Position numbers and translations under genes: made by a program. The notes beneath the pieces are model-generated. The model made no database searches. It saw only the letters and a program-made list of their open reading frames with translations, and was not told the DNA's origin. Positions 1 through 20,574 of a stretch of 24,000 bases of DNA are shown piece by piece (position 1 is the first letter of the stretch; each line of letters opens with the position of its first letter). Source of the DNA: Candidatus Heimdallarchaeota archaeon (GTDB lineage: Archaea > Asgardarchaeota > Heimdallarchaeia > Heimdallarchaeales > Heimdallarchaeaceae); the NCBI GenBank assembly GCA_030611665.1, contig JAUWPI010000018.1, positions 1 through 24,000 of the forward strand, written 5' to 3'.

Positions 1-255
1 AGCTCCTTCAATAAAGATTTTCTCTAATTCTCCTCTTTGCATTTCTTGAGCTACTCTCTCTCCTAATGATAACATTGCTGCAGTCATAGCTGCCAATCTA
101 GCTTCTTCAATTTCTTGAGGTAGCACTGATGCTATTGGTAATCCTTCTATTGATACAATCGCTGCACTTTCAATTTCTGGAACTTTTATCTTCAAATCAG
201 TTAATGTAGTCTTCAATTCGCTTGTTTTATTCTCAAAAGTTATTCCGAATGCCAT
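1..255 (-). CDS. Roadblock/LC7 (MglB-like) domain protein, N-terminal part; the gene runs off the left edge
   Basis: Absent from the ORF track because there is no stop in the window. Manual minus-strand translation from ATG (255..253) gives 85 open codons: MAFGITFENKTSELKTTLTDLKIKVPEIESAAIVSIEGLPIASVLPQEIEEARLAAMTAAMLSLGERVAQEMQRGELEKIFIEGA. The pattern 'AAIVS.EGLPIAS ... AAM.AAMLSLGERV ... GEL' is the typical Roadblock/LC7 signature. It looks paralogous to ORF 8256..8558. Confidence 0.75.
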   Translation of the reverse strand, partial: MAFGITFENKTSELKTTLTDLKIKVPEIESAAIVSIEGLPIASVLPQEIEEARLAAMTAAMLSLGERVAQEMQRGELEKIFIEGA

Positions 256-7629: not shown

Positions 7630-8196
7630 TTATACAGCATATACTTTCAATAACAGTACTTCTCTAGCTAAAGATTGGAAGCATCTTTTTACTCCAATAC
7701 CCTCTACTGCAATTGTTTCATATATTGGAATGTTTGTGCCTAAGTCTAAAGCATCTACCAATTCCCTTTTGTCCATTGCATCGGGAGCATCTCTCTTATT
7801 TAATGCAATAACGATTGGGATCTCTCCTCCAATCTTGTCTCCCATCTCCTTCTTCAATTCTTCTGCAGATTCTATATTATCAGCTAACATAGCTCTTGAT
7901 GAATCTGCAACAAATAATAATCCATCTACACCTTTCAAAACTAGAGATCTTTGGTGTCTGTGTCTTCTTTGCCCAGCAACTGTGTATATGTCTAGAATAA
8001 CAGAAGATGTTGCCATAAATGGGCTAAAATCAAAGTAAATTGTCCTTCCTGAAGGATCTTCAATGCTATTTAAACCCCCCTTCTTTATCCCAGTAACATC
8101 AGTATGTAGTCTTCTAAGTAATGTGGTCTTTCCGGAAAGGCTTGGTCCAACAAAAACCAGCTTAAAATGCATTTTTCCCGAAGCGTCTTTTCTCAT
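7630..8196 (-). CDS. MglA-family small GTPase (Ras superfamily)
   Basis: G1: 'GPSLSGKTTL'. Switch I: 'GRTIYFDFSPF'. G3 variant: 'IYTVAGQ', with T in place of D as in MglA. Also 'RSLVLKGVDGLLFVADS'. G4: 'LNKRD'. It lies directly downstream of a Roadblock/LC7 gene on the same strand. Confidence 0.85.
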   Translation of the reverse strand: MRKDASGKMHFKLVFVGPSLSGKTTLLRRLHTDVTGIKKGGLNSIEDPSGRTIYFDFSPFMATSSVILDIYTVAGQRRHRHQRSLVLKGVDGLLFVADSSRAMLADNIESAEELKKEMGDKIGGEIPIVIALNKRDAPDAMDKRELVDALDLGTNIPIYETIAVEGIGVKRCFQSLAREVLLLKVYAV

Positions 8197-8255
8197 CTTA
8201 CTTTGGCCTCATCACATATGTTGCGTGTTAGTATGGCATCTGGGTTATTTCTTCT

Positions 8256-8558
8256 TTATTTCCTTTTTTCTCGTAACACTATCAATACATACTCATTTTC
8301 AGGTGCAACTAAAATTTCACCATGACTTGTATCTAGTGTGAAGAAGTTTAAGTGACCTTCTTCTAGTTCTGTTACTACTGCTTTGGCACGGCCTACTAGT
8401 GAAGCAACAAGAGCAGAAACGTTTTCTCTCATTTCCATACTAAGGTTTTGTGTGCTTGATATTGGTAAACCATCATTACTAGTAATTATCACTCCTCTAA
8501 CTCCGGGATGTGATTCGAGAGATTTAAGCGTCTCTTCAAATTGTTTTTGTGATATCAT
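8256..8558 (-). CDS. Roadblock/LC7 (MglB-like) domain protein
   Basis: 'GVRGVIITSNDGLPISS...ALVASLVGRAKAVVTELEEGHLNFFTLDTSHGEILVAPENEYVLIVL' is the canonical Roadblock/LC7 pattern. AGGAG lies 9 nt upstream of the ATG. The gene ends 59 nt upstream of the GTPase gene. Confidence 0.85.
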   Translation of the reverse strand: MISQKQFEETLKSLESHPGVRGVIITSNDGLPISSTQNLSMEMRENVSALVASLVGRAKAVVTELEEGHLNFFTLDTSHGEILVAPENEYVLIVLREKRK

Positions 8559-13617: not shown

Positions 13618-15804
13618 ATGGCCGATAAAGAAATTACATTAAGAGTTGCTGAAGCAAAGCAACGAGACGTTGGAAGAGGCAAAGTACGTTTAGATAGTAT
13701 GGCAATGTCAAAAATTAGTGTTTCAACAGGTGACATTGTTGAAATTGTTGGTAAACGTTCTACTACTGCAGTAGCTTGGCCTTCCTACCCTGAAGATTTG
13801 AAAAAAGAAATAGTCCGCTGTGATGGTGTAATTAGGAGGAATGCAGGAGTTTCGTTAGGAGATAAAGTTGTTGTCAAAAAAGCAAAGGTAAGTGTTGCTA
13901 GACAAGTTACTTTAGCTCCTGAACAAATGTCAGTAAATATTGATTTTAGTTTCGAAAATTTTGTGAAAAGAAAGCTCCTTGGTCAACCACTTTCAAGAAA
14001 AGATACAGTCTTAATACCAATTCTTGGTAGAGCAATTCCTTTCAATGTTGTTACTACAGTCCCTTCTGGAATTGTAGTTGTTACTGAAAGCACACAACTC
14101 AAAGTAGCTGAAAAACCATTACTTGAAGGAGAAAAAACTGCTCCTAGCATTTCTTATGAAGATATTGGGGGCTTACACCAAGAAATCCTTAAGATTCGAG
14201 AAATGGTTGAACTCCCACTTAAGTTCCCACAGCTTTTTGAAAAACTAGGTATTGATCCACCAAAAGGTGTTTTACTTCATGGTCCTCCTGGCTGTGGAAA
14301 AACCTTAGTAGCTCGAGCCGTCGCAAATGAATCAGAGGCTCATTTCATTGTTATTAATGGTCCTGAAATTATGTCAAAGTTTTATGGAGAATCGGAACAA
14401 CGTTTACGAAGTATTTTCAAAGATGCTGAAGACAATTCTCCAAGCATTGTGTTCATTGATGAATTAGATGCAATAGCACCAAAACGTGAAGACGTAACAG
14501 GTGAGGTTGAAAGAAGAGTAGTTGCGCAATTATTAGCATTAATGGATGGGTTAATAGCTCGTGGTCAAGTCATTGTTATTGGCGCAACTAATCGTCCTAA
14601 CGCGGTTGATCCTGCTCTTCGTCGTCCAGGACGTTTTGATCGAGAAATCGAAATACATGTTCCAGATAGAGATAGTAGAGAAGAGATTCTTCTCATCCAT
14701 ACGCGTGGAATGCCTTTAACTCAAGATGTTGATTTGAAAGCATTAGCAAATGTTACCCACGGTTATGTTGGTGCAGATTTGGAAGCTCTAGCTCGTGAGG
14801 CTGCAATGAAAACTCTAAGAAGGGTTTTACCTTCTGTTAATCTTGTTGAAGGAAGTATATCTTCTGAAGTTCTAGACCAACTTGAAGTAACACATGATGA
14901 CTTTTTGTCCGGTTTTAAGGAAATTACTCCAACAGCAATAAGAGAAGTTTATATAGAATCGCCCAACGTCCCATGGACTGATGTTGGTGGTCTTGCTCAG
15001 GCAATTACTGATATTCGAGAAGCTATAGAATGGCCTCTTACACAAAAGGATTCTTTCAAAAGAATTGGTATCAAACCTCCAAGAGGGATATTGCTTTATG
15101 GACCTCCAGGTTGTGGAAAGACTCTTCTCGCAAAAGCCGTTGCTACAGAATCTGAAGCTAATTTCATCTCTATTAAAGGTCCTGAAGTGCTTTCAAAATG
15201 GGTGGGCGAAAGTGAGAAAGCTATTCGTGAAGTTTTCCGCAAAGCTCGACTTGCAGCACCTTCAATAATTTTCTTCGATGAAATTGATTCTTTAATTCCT
15301 GTGAGAGGAACGTCTTCGGATAGTAATGTTACAGAGAGGGTTATCAGTCAGTTATTAACAGAATTAGATGGATTGGAAGAGCTAAAGGATATAGTCGTTC
15401 TTGGAGCTACAAATAGACCCGATATAGTAGATCCAGCAGTTTTAAGACCTGGTAGATTTGACAGATTGATTTTTGTAAACCCTCCTAACCAAAAAGGTAG
15501 ATTGCAAATTTTCAAGGTTTATACTCGTGATATGCCACTCGCATCTTCCGTTTCAATAAAAGAATTAGCATCAGTAACCGATGGTTTTGTTGGTAGTGAT
15601 ATTGAAGCATTATGCAGAGAAGCTGGTATGCTAGCCCTTCGAGAAAGTTTTGAAATTGAAACTGTAACTATGACCCATTTCAATAATGCTCTTGAAAAAA
15701 TACATCCCACTGTTACACCTGATGTTATTAAATACTACGAAAAAATCAGCGAAAAGTTCAAGCGTCCAAGTCAAATTACAAGTCCAAAGATTGGTTACAC
15801 TTAA
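13618..15804 (+). CDS. cdc48: Cdc48/VCP/p97-type AAA+ ATPase (N domain plus D1 and D2)
   Basis: Cdc48 N domain: 'LRVAEA...[11 protein letters not shown]...GDIVEI.GKR.T.A'. Two Walker A motifs ('GPPGCGKT' twice). Walker B: 'IVFIDELD' and 'IIFFDEID'. SRH: '[18 protein letters not shown]' and '[20 protein letters not shown]'. The protein ends in ...KIGYT. Confidence 0.95.
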
Positions 15805-15929
15805 GTAGCACTTTCTACTTTTCTTTTCTTTTATGTTATAGCAAATTCCTTTATCATCTTGATATGATACTTAAAATAGATTTTTAAGCGCATTGAGGTA
15901 ATTATAATATTGTAGGGTTGTACAAATAT

Positions 15930-16781
15930 ATGATTGGATTCTACATAGTAAACAAGGATGAAATGGAAGTACTTTTTTGTCGTCCCCTTGCGATTCAAAA
16001 AGAGGATCAAGAGGTAGACGAGATAGTTAGATTTTTACTTCAATTTTACTCTGAAGCCGAAAAAAACCCCAACTTAGACGAACTTCAAGTTATGAAGTTT
16101 GGTAACACAAAAATTCTGTTTAAGTGTAAATACTCATTCTTATTTGTCTTACTTAGCCCTCCAAATTATTCAACGGAAATGATTTCTTCTCAATTGTTTT
16201 TCTTCATGAAACTTTTTTTAAATGCATTCGAAGTTAAAGACGAAAATAGTTCAACTGAATTCCTGAAAGAGTTAGAAGGGATTAAAAGACGTGAATTATC
16301 AGAATCACTTTCTCACTCCTTTTTGTTGTGGAATGTTTTGGATCTTCATATTGAGGATATTGATAAAAGGAATCTGGTAGAGGTGTTTGAAAACATCTTA
16401 AACTCTATCTGGATTGGGATAAAGAGCTATATAGAGGAAAGAAACACTATGAAAATTGAAGATTTTTATGAAAAGTTCAGTGAAAATTTACAAGCTTATT
16501 TAGAAGAAAATTATTCTTATCTAAAGGAAGTTTATTCTCTGACGCTTGAAGAAGGATTTGATATCAGTGATGTTGATACAAAGAAAATTACAACAAGCGA
16601 GATTAAGAGAGAATTTATTCACTTTCTTAAGTATATGCTAGATTGTTTACAAAAGGAGATGGGAGAAGAAGGATTTAGATACATAATTGCTCAGAGAGTA
16701 CCTGTAGCAATTAAAGTAGAATGGCAAAGGTTGGATGGATTAGGTTTGATTCAAGATATACTAGATGTGGTGTGGAGGTAA
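15930..16781 (+). CDS. Hypothetical protein with an N-terminal longin-like domain and a helical C-terminal half
   Basis: The track starts at TTG 15918; I prefer ATG 15930 (MIGFYIVNKDE...). The N-terminal ~100 aa are 'IGFYIVNKDEMEVLFCRPL...DEIVRFLLQFYSEAEK...LQVMKFGNTKILFKCKYSFLFVLLSP...MISSQLFFFMKLFLNAF', a beta-beta-alpha-beta-beta-beta-alpha pattern. The stop TAA (16779..16781) is 4 nt before the GTPase ATG. Confidence 0.6.
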   Translation: MIGFYIVNKDEMEVLFCRPLAIQKEDQEVDEIVRFLLQFYSEAEKNPNLDELQVMKFGNTKILFKCKYSFLFVLLSPPNYSTEMISSQLFFFMKLFLNAFEVKDENSSTEFLKELEGIKRRELSESLSHSFLLWNVLDLHIEDIDKRNLVEVFENILNSIWIGIKSYIEERNTMKIEDFYEKFSENLQAYLEENYSYLKEVYSLTLEEGFDISDVDTKKITTSEIKREFIHFLKYMLDCLQKEMGEEGFRYIIAQRVPVAIKVEWQRLDGLGLIQDILDVVWR

Positions 16782-16785
16782 AAAG

Positions 16786-17373
16786 ATGAATCAGTTACAA
16801 AAAATAATATGTGTTGGCTCAGCATTTGTTGGAAAAACTTCGTTAGCAAGAAGGTTTACACTAAATACCTTTATTCACAGCTACATTCCAACATTAGGTG
16901 TAAGTTGGTTAACAAAAACATTAACCTTTACGCCAGAGCAATTGAATGAGAATATGTTAAAGAAAATATACACAGACCCTGAAACTATCAGGCTATCTTG
17001 TTGGGATACGGGAGGGCAGGAAATGTTCACTTACCTTCGTCCAAAATACTATGTAGGTGCTACATGTGCGATTATAGTTTTTGATATTACTAATCAAAAC
17101 TCATTTGACGATGTGGATATTTGGACAAATGAAGTTCTTTCAAGAGTACCTGATATCCCTATTATTCTCAGTGGAAATAAATATGATTTAAAAGATGCTA
17201 GAGCAGTATCCCGTGATGATGCAATAGCTTTTGCTAAACTTCATCGATTTGATTATGTTGAAACATCTGCACTTTCAGCACATAACGTTGATAAACTATT
17301 TTATCATGCTGGACGATTGGGAAAGCAATTTAGCGAAGAACATCTTAAATTTAGAACAGAGTACATACTATAA
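16786..17373 (+). CDS. Rab/Ras-like small GTPase
   Basis: G1: 'GSAFVGKTSL'. Switch I: 'YIPTLGV'. G3: 'WDTGGQE'. 'YYVGA' resembles the Rab YYRGA motif. G4: 'GNKYDL'. G5: 'ETSAL'. GGAGG (16774..16778) lies 7 nt upstream of ATG 16786. The track's alternative start at 16765 would add MWCGGKK. Confidence 0.85.
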   Translation: MNQLQKIICVGSAFVGKTSLARRFTLNTFIHSYIPTLGVSWLTKTLTFTPEQLNENMLKKIYTDPETIRLSCWDTGGQEMFTYLRPKYYVGATCAIIVFDITNQNSFDDVDIWTNEVLSRVPDIPIILSGNKYDLKDARAVSRDDAIAFAKLHRFDYVETSALSAHNVDKLFYHAGRLGKQFSEEHLKFRTEYIL

Positions 17374-17387
17374 TAAAAACACCCTCC

Positions 17388-17395
17388 TTTTTTTT
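17388..17395 (+). terminator. Oligo-T tract downstream of the GTPase gene
   Basis: A T8 run lies 15 nt after the TAA stop. Archaeal RNA polymerase commonly terminates at oligo-T tracts. Confidence 0.4.
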
Positions 17396-17451: not shown

Positions 17452-18612
17452 ATGAGTACTGAGTTATCAATTGTTTCTGAGTATACTTCAATCAATCTTG
17501 ATGAACCGCTATCAAAAGTGTTTGAATATTTTAAAGAAAATGTACGTGAAGTTCTAGTTTTTGACGAAAAAAGCGTCTTCTTTGGTTATCTTACAAAGAA
17601 GAATATAACAAGGCAATCTAGAATACAACCTAATACTAAAGTATCCAACTTACTCCAGAAAGTTCCAACTGTTAAGAGGAATTCCTCTGTTGATGATATA
17701 GCCAGAGCTCTTTTATCTGCAAAGATAAATACTGTTCCTATCGAAGACGAGGGAAAAATCATTGGTGTTTTTAGGGACATCGATGTCATCAGGGTCTCTG
17801 CTGCATTGTTTAAAGATAAAACTGTGAAAGATATGATGACACCAAATCCTATCTGTGTCAGTCCTGATACTACAGCAGCAAGGCTAATCGCAATCTCTAG
17901 GACAAATAATATTTCCAGAGCACCTGTAGTTGATGAAAACAATTACTTATTAGGTATTGTTAGTCCTCACGATATGGCTGAGCTTCTAATTCCTTCATTC
18001 CCCACTAAACAAACTAGGGGAGATAGGTCAGCTGTACAACATACTCCACTCGTAGCCCCTGTTAAAGATCTTATGACTGAAGAAGTGGTTAGTTGTAAAG
18101 AAAACGAGTTGGTTCTTGAAGCTATAAGTAAGCTATACAAATCCAATCACAAAACACTAATTATAATAAACGAAGAAAATCACCCTGTTGGAGTTTTAAC
18201 TACTACAGATCTTCTTGAAACTGTAAGCATCCCACCTCAGACTGAAGGATACTATGTAAGAGTAATTGGAGATGTTGATGATGAAGACATGGAACCAATC
18301 ATTGAGATGGGTGTAGATCTTGTTAAGAAATTTGCTTCTGTGATCGGTAATTCCGGACAATTATTTATTCATGCCAAATCTATTCCAAAGAAGAAGTTTA
18401 GAGGATTTGTTCTCTATCAGATAAGATTGAGAATATCCACAGACAAAGGTCATACCTATGTAGCTAAAGCAGAAGGTTATGGAGTTTACAGTGCACATGC
18501 CGTAGCCTTAGATAGATTAGAAAGAGAAATTATCTCTGAAAGAGAATTGGCGATACAATCTAGACAATCTGGGAGTGAAAGATACCTTCTTGATGAACTT
18601 GAAGAAGTCTAA
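17452..18612 (+). CDS. Four-CBS-domain protein with a C-terminal HPF/RaiA-like (S30AE-type) domain
   Basis: Four CBS-like repeats are visible (e.g. 'INTVPIEDEGKIIGVFRDIDVIR', 'ISRAPVVDENNYLLGIVSPHDMAE', 'HKTLIIINEENHPVGVLTTTDLLE'). The C-terminus (residues 266-366) is 'GYYVRVIGDVD..MEPIIEMGVDLVKKFASVIG..QLFIHAKSIP...LYQIRLRISTDKGHTYVAKAEGYGVYSAHAVALDRLEREIISE'. This parallels the beta-alpha-beta-beta-beta-alpha layout of E. coli HPF and its 'ASAEGQDMYAAIDGLIDKLARQL' block, recalled from memory. Confidence 0.75.
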   Translation: MSTELSIVSEYTSINLDEPLSKVFEYFKENVREVLVFDEKSVFFGYLTKKNITRQSRIQPNTKVSNLLQKVPTVKRNSSVDDIARALLSAKINTVPIEDEGKIIGVFRDIDVIRVSAALFKDKTVKDMMTPNPICVSPDTTAARLIAISRTNNISRAPVVDENNYLLGIVSPHDMAELLIPSFPTKQTRGDRSAVQHTPLVAPVKDLMTEEVVSCKENELVLEAISKLYKSNHKTLIIINEENHPVGVLTTTDLLETVSIPPQTEGYYVRVIGDVDDEDMEPIIEMGVDLVKKFASVIGNSGQLFIHAKSIPKKKFRGFVLYQIRLRISTDKGHTYVAKAEGYGVYSAHAVALDRLEREIISERELAIQSRQSGSERYLLDELEEV

Positions 18613-18733
18613 CCTTCTTATTTTCTTGATTTTCTTTAGCTATTTTTCTCCTTTTTTTGCACACATCCCTCTCGCATAGTTTAAAAATGGATTAATCAAA
18701 TTCATCTTAATCCTTACTTAGAGATGATTTGAA

Positions 18734-19789
18734 ATGAGCAATAAAGAACCAAGAAAAAGAAAAAGAAATTTCGCTATGCTAAACCGTGAAGTAATAAAAC
18801 CAGGTTACTGTGTTTCATGTGGAGGATGTGAAGCTGTTTGTCCTGTTTATGTTATTTCAATTGAGCAACTAAAACCTAAACTTGTTGGAGGCTGCATTTC
18901 TTGCGGAGCTTGCATAGATATATGCTTACGATTTAAGCAAAAAGTTGAACAACCAACATATCCTGTAGACGAGATTGGAACCATTTTGGAGATTTATACA
19001 GGAAAAACTAAAGATGAAGAAATTCACTCTAAATCGCAAAATGGTGGCATTGTAACTACTTTGCTCTTAACAGCTTTGAAGAAAGGAAAAATCGATAGTT
19101 CGCTGGTGACTGCTCATGGAAGTGATTTACTAAGTCCCATGCCAACTTTAGCACTTTCTGAGTTCGATATTCGAAAGTCATCAAAATCTAAATACACTCT
19201 TAATCCCGTTCTGATAAAACTCTCATCAATTAAACTAAGTAATAAGAAAAAAGTTGCCGCAGTTGGTTTACCTTGTCATAATGAAACTTTAACTAATATA
19301 ATGGATATGAAAAACCTTGGAGCAGATTTCAGAGTGAAATACAAAATAGGTCTGTTCTGCATGAGCTGCTATGAACCAACCGGCTTTCGCGATATTATAT
19401 CTAACAGTTTGGGTCTCTCTACATCCAATCTTACAAAAACCGATTGTGCCCGTGGAAAATTCTTCTTTGAACACCCCGATGGGACGACCGATATAAAAAT
19501 CAAAGAATGTGGTAGTGCAAAAGCAGAGGGATGCAAATACTGTAAAGACTTTGCAGCTGAATTTGCAGATATCTCAATTGGTAATATTGGTGTTGATGAC
19601 GATAGCAACATCATCCTAATAAGAACCAAAGCTGGAAAAGAGTTATTCGAGTTTGCTCTTAAAGACAATTTATTAGATGTAAAGAAAATTGATGAAAGTA
19701 AATGGGAAGAAACATTAGCTCCTGCAGTCAAATTATCATCATTAAAAAGAAAAGGAGCTAAAGCTTTAGCTCCCATAGAATCAGCATAA
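18734..19789 (+). CDS. Coenzyme F420 hydrogenase/dehydrogenase beta-subunit family protein (FrhB/FdhB/FpoF-like) with an N-terminal 2x[4Fe-4S] ferredoxin domain
   Basis: 'CVSCGGCEAVCP' and 'CISCGACIDIC' clusters. FrhB_N-like: 'SQNGGIVTTLLL'. FrhB_C-like: 'VGLPCH', 'GLFCM', 'CKYCKDFAAEFADISIGNIG'. Confidence 0.8.
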   Translation: MSNKEPRKRKRNFAMLNREVIKPGYCVSCGGCEAVCPVYVISIEQLKPKLVGGCISCGACIDICLRFKQKVEQPTYPVDEIGTILEIYTGKTKDEEIHSKSQNGGIVTTLLLTALKKGKIDSSLVTAHGSDLLSPMPTLALSEFDIRKSSKSKYTLNPVLIKLSSIKLSNKKKVAAVGLPCHNETLTNIMDMKNLGADFRVKYKIGLFCMSCYEPTGFRDIISNSLGLSTSNLTKTDCARGKFFFEHPDGTTDIKIKECGSAKAEGCKYCKDFAAEFADISIGNIGVDDDSNIILIRTKAGKELFEFALKDNLLDVKKIDESKWEETLAPAVKLSSLKRKGAKALAPIESA

Positions 19790-19824
19790 TTTCCACTAAG
19801 TTCAATCTATTTAGGGTGAATTAA

Positions 19825-20574
19825 ATGCACCATATTGAGATCATTCCATTGGAATTACCAATAATCACGGAAGGCGATGATATAGCTAGTCTTATTATTG
19901 ATTCCATTCAAAAAACAACAATTCAAATCACAGATGGTGACATAATAGTAATTGCTCATACTATAATTTCTAGAGCTGAAGGCATGGAGTTTTATCTTCC
20001 ATCCCTTAACCCTTCACCTGTCGCTGAATTGATTGCTAGAAGAACCGGCAAAGATTCCTCTCTTGTTGAGCTTATATTATCAGAATCTACAAAGATTCTA
20101 AAAGTAAAAAACAATATCATTATAACAAAAACCAAACAAGGATGGATTTGTGCTAACTCTGCAGTAGATCAATCAAATACCAAACCTAACTGTGCCGTGA
20201 CTCTGCCAATTGATTCTAGCAAATCAGCAACTTTCATTGGTAAGAAATTATCTGAAACCTATCAAAAAGATCTATCTTTGTTAATAGCTGATACTCATGG
20301 TAGGGCTCTAAGGCGTGGTGCAATCAATGTAGCAATTGGTTCCTATAATTTTTCAGTTATCGATGATGCAAAAGGAAGAGAAGATATTTTTGGTTACAAG
20401 CTTAAATCAACAGTTGTAGCTTTGGCTGATGAAGTGTGTTCGGCAGCTGAACTAGTTATGGGTCAAGCTGGAGAAATGATACCTGTTGTTATAATAAGAG
20501 GATTTAAACAACGATCAATTGTTTCGGATATCAGGGAACTTCAATTTGAAGATGACCGCAGATTATTTCAATAG
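19825..20574 (+). CDS. cofE: Coenzyme F420-0:L-glutamate ligase
   Basis: 'GDIIVIAHTIISRAEG', 'GWICANSAVDQSN', 'IADTHGRALRRGAINVAIG', 'ALADEVCSAAELVMGQAGEMIPVVIIRG'. GGGTGA lies upstream of the ATG. The gene ends TAG TAA, a tandem stop. Confidence 0.85.
   Translation: MHHIEIIPLELPIITEGDDIASLIIDSIQKTTIQITDGDIIVIAHTIISRAEGMEFYLPSLNPSPVAELIARRTGKDSSLVELILSESTKILKVKNNIIITKTKQGWICANSAVDQSNTKPNCAVTLPIDSSKSATFIGKKLSETYQKDLSLLIADTHGRALRRGAINVAIGSYNFSVIDDAKGREDIFGYKLKSTVVALADEVCSAAELVMGQAGEMIPVVIIRGFKQRSIVSDIRELQFEDDRRLFQ

Follow-up and report, generated by a model that had tools for sequence, protein, structure and literature searches.

Gene pairs that join a roadblock or longin protein to a small GTPase are an old theme, with MglB-MglA as the familiar example, and Asgard genomes encode dozens of small GTPases together with dozens of longin and roadblock proteins; to our knowledge, most of these regulators have not been assigned to a particular GTPase. 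Here we describe a two-gene locus of this kind in a stretch of 24,000 nucleotides (nt) from a Candidatus Heimdallarchaeota archaeon (contig JAUWPI010000018.1, positions 1 to 24,000, referred to in full as the window). The upstream gene, which we call A (15930..16781, forward strand), encodes a protein of 283 amino acids (aa) in which a predicted longin domain at the N terminus is followed by a helical domain; the downstream gene, B (16786..17373, forward strand), encodes a Rab-like small GTPase of 195 aa. Both were taken from the listing of open reading frames, and B is also matched by the Pfam Ras family. We propose, with moderate confidence, that A and B form an operon of the Heimdallarchaeaceae in which A is the dedicated partner or regulator of the GTPase.

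Among Asgard archaea, 130 orthologous groups of roadblock/longin proteins and 94 of small GTPases have been described (Liu et al., bioRxiv 10.1101/2020.10.19.343400 / Nature 2021), and a conserved Asgard operon in which genes for a LAMTOR1-like roadblock protein and a Rab-like GTPase stand with one for a DENN protein has been proposed as a GEF (factor for guanine nucleotide exchange) module (Liu et al., bioRxiv 10.1101/2020.10.19.343400). The locus described here resembles that operon in joining a Rab-like GTPase to a longin/roadblock-type protein within a conserved cluster; however, it has two genes rather than three, contains no roadblock or DENN gene, and occurs only in Heimdallarchaeaceae, and the C-terminal domain of A is all-helical whereas the cDENN domain of the DENN protein is α/β. 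Membership of A in the DENN family was rejected: across 27 members of the A family there is no DENN, uDENN, or dDENN Pfam match at E<=0.1, and no α/β core follows the longin domain. An earlier note on this DNA had put forward a minimal longin–GTPase exchange module; the general idea is not unprecedented, because Asgard longin, roadblock, or DENN genes that neighbour Rab-like GTPases have already been described as candidate GEF modules (Liu et al., bioRxiv 10.1101/2020.10.19.343400). Structures of an Asgard Rab, a roadblock protein, and TRAPPC3 have been solved, and the genes for GTPases and regulators lie mostly outside operons in MK-D1 (Tran et al., PMC10933270); operon analysis of GTPases has been listed as an outstanding question (Dey et al. 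2016, PMC4917890). In the literature searched, we found no description of the A family, nor of an Asgard homologue of Mon1, Ccz1, or Fuzzy.

With MglB-MglA and the archaeal and Asgard Roadblock–GTPase pairs, the locus shares a regulator gene directly upstream of a small GTPase in one operon; in contrast to those pairs, A has a longin topology and is three times longer, and B is Rab-like. The roadblock fold starts with a helix, in the order α-β-β-α-β-β-β. A was rejected as a Roadblock/LC7 member—its model opens with two strands, and it has no Robl_LC7 match, where the window's own roadblock protein scores 1.4e-20. A–B is of a known kind, namely a regulator–GTPase operon that pairs an Asgard longin protein with a Rab-like GTPase; it is distinctive in the union of a longin with an unclassified helical domain in A, in an interswitch insert in B, and in the strictly conserved coupling of the two genes.

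The junction between the genes is tight. The reading frame of A has two possible starts, 15918 (TTG) and 15930 (ATG), and ends with TAA at 16779-16781. Because the alignments of its homologues open at M-x-G-F-Y-I, which forms strand β1 of the AlphaFold2 model, we place the start at ATG 15930; the product is then 283 aa long, not the 284 or 287 aa first proposed. Only 4 nt separate this stop from the ATG of B at 16786, and a Shine-Dalgarno-like GGAGG (16774..16778, forward strand) lies inside the last two codons of A (TGG AGG, W-R), 7 nt 5' of the B start. For the stop, the start, and the embedded motif, the sequence agrees with the earlier note.

The tight coupling claimed there is also borne out, and extends beyond the window. 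We examined 26 Heimdall-type loci reached through A, made up of six contig look-ups for divergent cluster representatives, a second contig of one of these, and 19 species-representative genomes. In all 26, an orthologue of B lies 3' of A on the same strand, with 2-6 nt from stop to start and the ribosome-binding motif set into the end of A in the same way. The motif in the relatives reads TGGAG(G/A/T), drawn from the terminal W-R/S codons of A, and three loci have GGCGGTGA with a GTG start; counting the window with the 26 relatives' loci, a Shine-Dalgarno-type motif (GGAGG or TGGAGR) stands 7-11 nt ahead of the B start. The pair thus shows what is expected of a coupled operon—genes on the same strand, stop and start a few nucleotides apart, and a Shine-Dalgarno motif within the upstream gene—both in its own sequence and in the relatives. 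Judged from these sequence features, A and B are probably translationally coupled, and the coupling is probably conserved; given the shared strand, the 2-6 nt spacing, and the ribosome-binding motif in the end of A, both proteins would therefore probably be made from one mRNA.

The linkage is also seen from the side of the GTPase. When loci were found through B, in a scan of metagenome contigs, A was present in 12 of 13 and stopped 8-10 nt short of the B match; in one locus among the 12 (L038, 698..1529) A is split across overlapping frames, 698-982 and 906-1529, by a frameshift or a sequencing error. Other small GTPases, with identities to B of <=43%, were accompanied by an A gene in 0 of 19 loci, and the association of A is specific to the B type among small GTPases. 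Conserved synteny, which had been suggested as a check, was found also in loci with rearranged flanks: L004 has no CDC48 gene upstream of the pair and its downstream genes are inverted, and in L009 and L010 the downstream block is inverted, yet A and B are still linked in each. Both orthologue sets were found only in Heimdallarchaeota/Heimdallarchaeaceae. The pairwise divergences of A and B correlate (r=0.92), which is weak evidence because any two genes of the same genomes would correlate.

A more distant case comes from P0072, a homologue with 21% identity to A in the locus alignment and with the same length and motifs. Its gene (L011) is followed, after 209 nt, by a Rab-like GTPase other than B, among unrelated genes, and the locus is an independent branch that repeats the longin–GTPase pattern. 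The GTPase beside it (L011, 5038..5619) has no β2-β3 insert and ends in a polybasic tail (KKPKKVSKKKKKKTKTR) that, to judge from its sequence, could allow membrane binding without a lipid anchor.

The family to which A belongs is small, since an exhaustive hidden Markov model (HMM) search of 1.84 billion cluster representatives gave just 13; no eukaryotic homologue was found in that search. A word-indexed search returned 61 homologues at 42-100% identity, all of them from Heimdallarchaeota and all unnamed ('hypothetical protein'). The exact protein sequence of A is present in NCBI data. Neither Pfam nor NCBIfam contains a family that A matches above threshold, in line with the earlier view that it does not belong to an annotated family. 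Against the sequences of solved structures, neither the single sequence nor a profile of 27 members gave anything significant (SLX1 0.12, Tra1 0.073, MON1A 0.29, AP μ1 0.34), and no transmembrane segment or other recognised domain was found in the protein.

Structure prediction is more informative about the N-terminal part of A. The full-length AlphaFold2 model, built on an alignment of 36 sequences, has a mean predicted local distance difference test score (pLDDT) of 80.2 and a predicted template modelling score (pTM) of 0.72, and displays a defined two-domain arrangement. The predicted longin domain (15930..16280, forward strand; residues 1 to ~117) runs β1 β2 α1 β3 β4 β5 α2 (α3), with strands at residues 3-8, 13-19, 53-57, 60-67, and 70-76 and helices at 26-43, 82-99, and 105-115. 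This reproduces the ββαβββα order that had been read from the first ~100 aa, and has the elements that define a longin, β-β-α-β-β-β-α(-α) with a five-stranded sheet sandwiched by helices. The fold comparison proposed earlier points the same way: all 50 of the listed Foldseek matches to the Protein Data Bank (PDB) are longin or related roadblock folds (probability 0.98-1.00, E 1e-4 to 4e-3). The best is AP σ (AP2 σ; E=1.1e-4, target-normalised TM score 0.58), and the Sec22b longin aligns over 99 columns with a root-mean-square deviation (rmsd) of 2.7 Å (E=6e-4); ζ-COP, the VAMP7 longin, one Ragulator roadblock subunit, MON1A/CCZ1, and Fuzzy are also among the matches. As a prediction, a longin fold for the N-terminal domain has good support.

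The best structural matches of this longin are thus AP σ, the N-terminal domain of AP μ, ζ-COP, and the longin SNAREs Sec22b and VAMP7; in contrast to the adaptor and coat small subunits, no large adaptor subunits are encoded near A, and A has no Clat_adaptor_s match. A longin-SNARE reading was rejected as well: there is no SNARE motif, no Longin or Synaptobrevin match, and no membrane anchor, and the helices fold compactly.

In sequence, the single hint of kinship is to the longins of RabGEFs. Pfam PF19036 (Fuz_longin_1, the first longin domain of FUZ/MON1/HPS1) matches A at a sub-threshold 17.4 bits; it is matched by 23 of 27 members of the A family, with a top score of 25.2 bits against a gathering cutoff of 26.1. 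It is the sole Pfam longin family matched by these 27 members, and no other longin, roadblock, DENN, folliculin, or adaptin family is matched in them. A specific kinship of the A longin with the RabGEF longins is below threshold, and the sequence scores are suggestive of it.

The systems to compare are the tri-longin RabGEFs, namely Mon1-Ccz1 for Rab7, Fuzzy-Inturned for Rab23, and HPS1-HPS4 for Rab32/38. A resembles them in its sub-threshold affinity for PF19036, in having MON1A, CCZ1, and Fuzzy among its Foldseek matches, and in that the client gene, B, is Rab-like. It differs from them in having one longin, not three, followed by an all-helical domain with one β-hairpin, and in that no Ccz1- or Inturned-like subunit is encoded beside it. 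Membership of A in the tri-longin RabGEFs was not accepted, with PF19036 below the gathering score (25.2 at best, against 26.1) and three longin domains not present.

The remainder of A is a predicted helical domain (16287..16778, forward strand; residues 120-283) with helices of ~49, 19, and 42 residues and, in addition, a β-hairpin and a pair of short terminal helices. Modelled alone, residues 120-283 reach pLDDT 86.2 and pTM 0.81; the best Foldseek match in the PDB has E=0.19 (ferritin, TM 0.25), and the domain is accordingly one without a solved structural relative. It carries the most conserved motifs of the family, SESLSHSFLLWNVLD.H..D.DKRN..EVFENILNS.W and EW.R, with W-R at the end. The word 'minimal' in the earlier description does not fit: ~60% of A is this extra conserved domain, whose predicted fold has no PDB relative. 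In the conservation profile of the whole protein the peak falls at about residues 70-165, a stretch that runs from the last longin strand through α2 and α3 to the middle of the long helix.

B is a small GTPase of the Ras superfamily. Such proteins can be recognized by G1 GxxxxGK[ST], G3 DxxG, G4 NKxD, and G5 SA[KL], together with a Pfam Ras score above threshold; B reads GSAFVGKT, DTGGQ, NKYD, and SAL, with all five G motifs (G1-G5) intact, and scores 152 bits against Pfam Ras (1.2e-44; cutoff 21.6) and 2.9e-24 against TIGR00231 small_GTP. Its best solved relatives are Rab6, Ypt1, ARA7, Rab5, and Rab11 at ~1e-29 to 1e-26, with Ran at 1e-25 and the Thorarchaeota Rab (PDB 7ezb) at 5.5e-25; of the 60 top PDB matches listed, 57 are Rab or Ypt proteins (1e-29 to 5e-25), and the rest are two Ran entries (~1e-25) and the Thorarchaeota Rab. 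The NCBI pipeline names the orthologues 'Rab family GTPase', and RabF-like motifs (LGVSW, RLSCW, MFTYLR, YYVGA, IVFDIT) can be read off the alignment with Rab6. The motifs previously taken to be Rab-like (WDTGGQE, YYVGA, GNKYDL, ETSAL) are all present, with Rab6, Ypt1, and Rab5 as best PDB matches at ~1e-29. These comparisons support the placement of B as Rab-like, not MglA- or Arf-like. The orthologues of B are 61-96% identical and all from Heimdallarchaeota, and the next database protein is down at 42%; B therefore belongs to a discrete orthologous group. One Heimdallarchaeota metagenome-assembled genome (MAG) carries a second GTPase related to B (L022, 7680..8183; phmmer E=1.9e-54), ~2.2 kb downstream of its A–B pair.

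Like the eukaryotic Rabs and the Thorarchaeota Rab (7ezb; Tran et al. 2024, PMC10933270), B largely keeps the Rab motif positions. It is unlike these Rabs in three respects: an unusual P-loop (GSAFVGKT), a β2-β3 insert of 15-17 aa, and the lack of a C-terminal prenylation cysteine. The P-loop GSAFVGKTS (16816..16842, forward strand; residues 11-19) has Ala where Ras has Gly12 and Phe where Ras has Gly13, and is invariant among 27 orthologues save for GNAFVGKTS in L006. A bulky Phe at the Gly13 position is, from sequence, unusual for Rab-like GTPases, and might influence the stimulation of hydrolysis. The insert sits at the β2-β3 (interswitch) tip (16918..16968, forward strand; residues 45-61, ~15-17 aa) and has the consensus TLTPEQLNENLTKxI; it is lineage-specific, lying opposite a gap in Rab6 and in the L011 GTPase, and is kept in 26 of 26 Heimdall-type orthologues. 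Switch II with G3, DTGGQE (17005..17022, forward strand; residues 74-79), keeps the catalytic Gln; G4 NKYD follows at 17176..17187 (forward strand; residues 131-134), and G5 SAL at 17266-17274 (forward strand), the latter placed by sequence and orthologue alignment. No prenylation-type cysteine occurs within the last 20 residues of B in any of 27 orthologues, and the tail reads LKFRKEYIL or LKFRTEYIL.

The sequences around the pair contain possible signals for its transcription, which we compared by eye across the loci, both upstream and downstream. In this window of ~34% G+C, an A/T-rich box, TTTTTAAG (15881..15888, forward strand), lies 42-49 nt 5' of the A start and could serve as an archaeal promoter element of the TATA/BRE type; also upstream of A stand another TATA-like run, AATTATAATA (15900-15909, forward strand), and a conserved GGGTTG (15915-15920, forward strand). 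When the upstream regions of 27 loci were set side by side, TTTTTAAG and GGGTTG were found again in two clades, at 57-88% protein identity. Downstream, a run of eight T (17388..17395, forward strand) begins 15 nt past the B stop and is a candidate oligo-T termination signal of the archaeal type; T-rich tracts follow B in the closest relatives too. The box before A and the T run after B fit a separate two-gene transcription unit.

Several of the flanking genes recur with the pair. Upstream, an archaeal CDC48/p97 AAA ATPase of 728 aa (13618..15804, forward strand) ends 125 nt before A; most Heimdallarchaeaceae loci (L001, L005-L010) have its gene there too; L004 and L011 do not. Downstream, a block at 17452..20574 (forward strand), conserved with the pair and sometimes inverted, encodes a protein with four CBS domains (17452..18612), an FrhB/FdhB-like F420-dependent subunit that includes a ferredoxin domain (18734..19789), and the F420 γ-glutamyl ligase CofE (19825..20574). 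The archaeal CDC48, FrhB-like, and CofE genes, with the roadblock and small-GTPase genes of the window, point to Asgard DNA. The window also holds a second regulator–GTPase pair on the reverse strand (7630..8558), which is a textbook Roadblock–GTPase example: a Roadblock/LC7 protein (8256..8558, reverse strand; Pfam Robl_LC7 1.4e-20, LAMTOR5 8.8e-6) and, 59 nt downstream, an Arf-like small GTPase (7630..8196, reverse strand; Pfam Arf 4e-14, SRPRB 6.6e-7). L004 has, directly upstream of A–B, an Arf-like GTPase whose Pfam profile is the same and which is likely the orthologue of the gene at 7630..8196.

In the mechanism that we propose, B would be a Rab-like molecular switch and A its dedicated partner, binding it directly. 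The likely contacts on B would be its switch and interswitch face, including the lineage-specific β2-β3 insert; on A they would probably involve the longin domain and the highly conserved stretch where it joins the helical domain. By way of this contact, A may set B's nucleotide state or the way in which B couples to other components, and the helical domain may link the pair to some further component. Longin platforms are the usual catalytic core of RabGEFs, and in eukaryotes the longin fold serves in regulators of Rab, Arf, and Rag GTPases. Among the ways in which A could act on B, we tentatively favour nucleotide exchange, because the only sequence affinity of the longin is to the first longin domain (LD1) of Fuz/MON1/HPS1 and the motif of longin GTPase-activating proteins (GAPs) is absent, and because the client is Rab-like; a GEF-like action is plausible, and we would not call it probable. 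A narrower proposal seems to us rather unlikely, in which A would be an archaeal, single-longin relative of the first (catalytic) longin domain in the Mon1/Fuzzy/HPS1 RabGEFs and would serve B, encoded with it, as exchange factor.

A number of observations weigh against the partnership of A and B, or against exchange as its purpose. One locus, L035, has a B that is 97% identical and no A sequence in the contig's 96 nt upstream of it; positions 1..96 hold unrelated, repeat-like sequence (…aacatccaacatcgaacgtccaacgtccaa…) where the end of A would be, and this exception could be an assembly artefact or a real rearrangement. The genes for CDC48, the CBS protein, the FrhB-like subunit, and CofE are also syntenic, and part of the conservation therefore reflects shared ancestry. 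The kinship with RabGEF longins is not established, because the PF19036 scores are sub-threshold and AP σ outranks MON1 and Fuzzy structurally. Known longin GEFs are heterodimers, and no paralogous second GEF subunit is adjacent to A in any locus examined. The highest conservation in A lies in the α2/α3/long-helix region, which is not a known longin–GTPase interface, and the helical domain has no known relative. Lastly, the Atabeyarchaeia-type subfamily of A, which includes Candidatus Atabeyarchaeum deiterrae, has no GTPase neighbour in the four neighbourhoods readable on both sides (L031-L034); on the P0071 contigs L002 and L003 no GTPase lies downstream, the upstream side being short or cut off.

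The genes of this subfamily have recurrent neighbours of their own. P0071, P0076, P0077, and P0083 (L031, 3830..5822; L033; L034) recur near NikR, a P-type ATPase, and an unannotated protein of 335-337 aa. The 335-337-aa proteins were considered as a second GEF subunit and set aside, with no informative Pfam match.

A might instead be an effector, adaptor, or stabilising subunit that binds B, for example in its GTP-bound form, in a stoichiometric complex and catalyses nothing—a doubtful alternative in our estimation. It would have models in the SRX longin of SRα on SRβ and in the helical Rab-binding domains that sit on Rabs; long helical hairpins such as those of the C-terminal domain of A are usual Rab-binding elements of effectors, and the two domains hold a defined arrangement in the full-length model (pTM 0.72). 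The SRP receptor (7obq_y) is among the weak full-length Foldseek matches, itself a weak one (rank 43, rmsd 23.8 Å). Translational coupling would suit 1:1 complexes better than catalytic regulators; however, mglBA is a case of coupled expression for a catalytic regulator as well, no downstream machine is indicated for A–B, and A has no transmembrane segment or other recognised domain.

Alternatively, A could be a GAP or a GAP co-factor for B, in the manner of MglB with MglA or of FLCN-FNIP, GATOR1, and C9orf72-SMCR8, which we consider unlikely. Prokaryotic regulator–GTPase operons of known function, such as mglBA, are mostly GAP pairs, B keeps its catalytic Gln, and A has five invariant arginines in the homologue alignment (R120, R147, R250, R267, R283). 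None of these, however, is inside the longin domain: residues 1-117 hold no invariant Arg, and R18 is replaced by K, D, or F in divergent members. The longin GAPs FLCN, NPRL2, and SMCR8/C9orf72 are marked by a GP motif, in the β1-β2 loop or where β2 begins, and by a conserved longin arginine finger (PMC12290439); the GP motif also marks a class of Heimdall longins proposed to be GAP-like (PMC12290439). In the core family the β1-β2 loop of A reads N-K-D-E-M, and distant members have S-G-R or P-G-G-R; neither contains GP; on the absence of this motif and of an invariant longin Arg, membership of A among the longin-GAP subunits (FLCN/NPRL2/SMCR8) was rejected. A also has no Pfam match to Folliculin, NPR2, or Robl_LC7, and, from Ras biochemistry, Ala at the G12 and Phe at the G13 position of the B P-loop should be an obstacle to a classical arginine finger.

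That A and B are only neighbours in a conserved gene-order block and do not interact is very unlikely: most loci also conserve CDC48, the CBS protein, the FrhB-like gene, and CofE around the pair, Atabeyarchaeia-type homologues of A have no GTPase neighbour, and the B of L035 has no A directly upstream, but the 2-6 nt junction with its embedded Shine-Dalgarno motif is kept while flanking genes are lost or inverted, a distant homologue of A again stands beside a Rab-like GTPase in a different context, and the link of the longin fold to small GTPases is well documented.

Read as a dedicated partner–GTPase operon, A–B will not surprise specialists in Asgard cell biology, to whom the general theme is already known. 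It offers a strictly conserved, predicted co-expressed cognate pair that is experimentally tractable: because A (283 aa) and B (195 aa) are small and look soluble, assays of binding, exchange, and hydrolysis are practical, as is a co-crystal. The helical domain of A and the insert of B are new structural elements. GEF activity, if it proves true, would place a longin-type Rab activator in archaea. Should A further prove to be a single-longin relative of the Mon1/Fuzzy/HPS1 catalytic domain, the helical domain and the interswitch insert would make up a new type of GEF–GTPase interface, a cognate longin-RabGEF/Rab pair would have existed in archaea of the Heimdallarchaeia lineage before eukaryotes, and the tri-longin GEFs would have arisen by duplication of such a single-longin unit.

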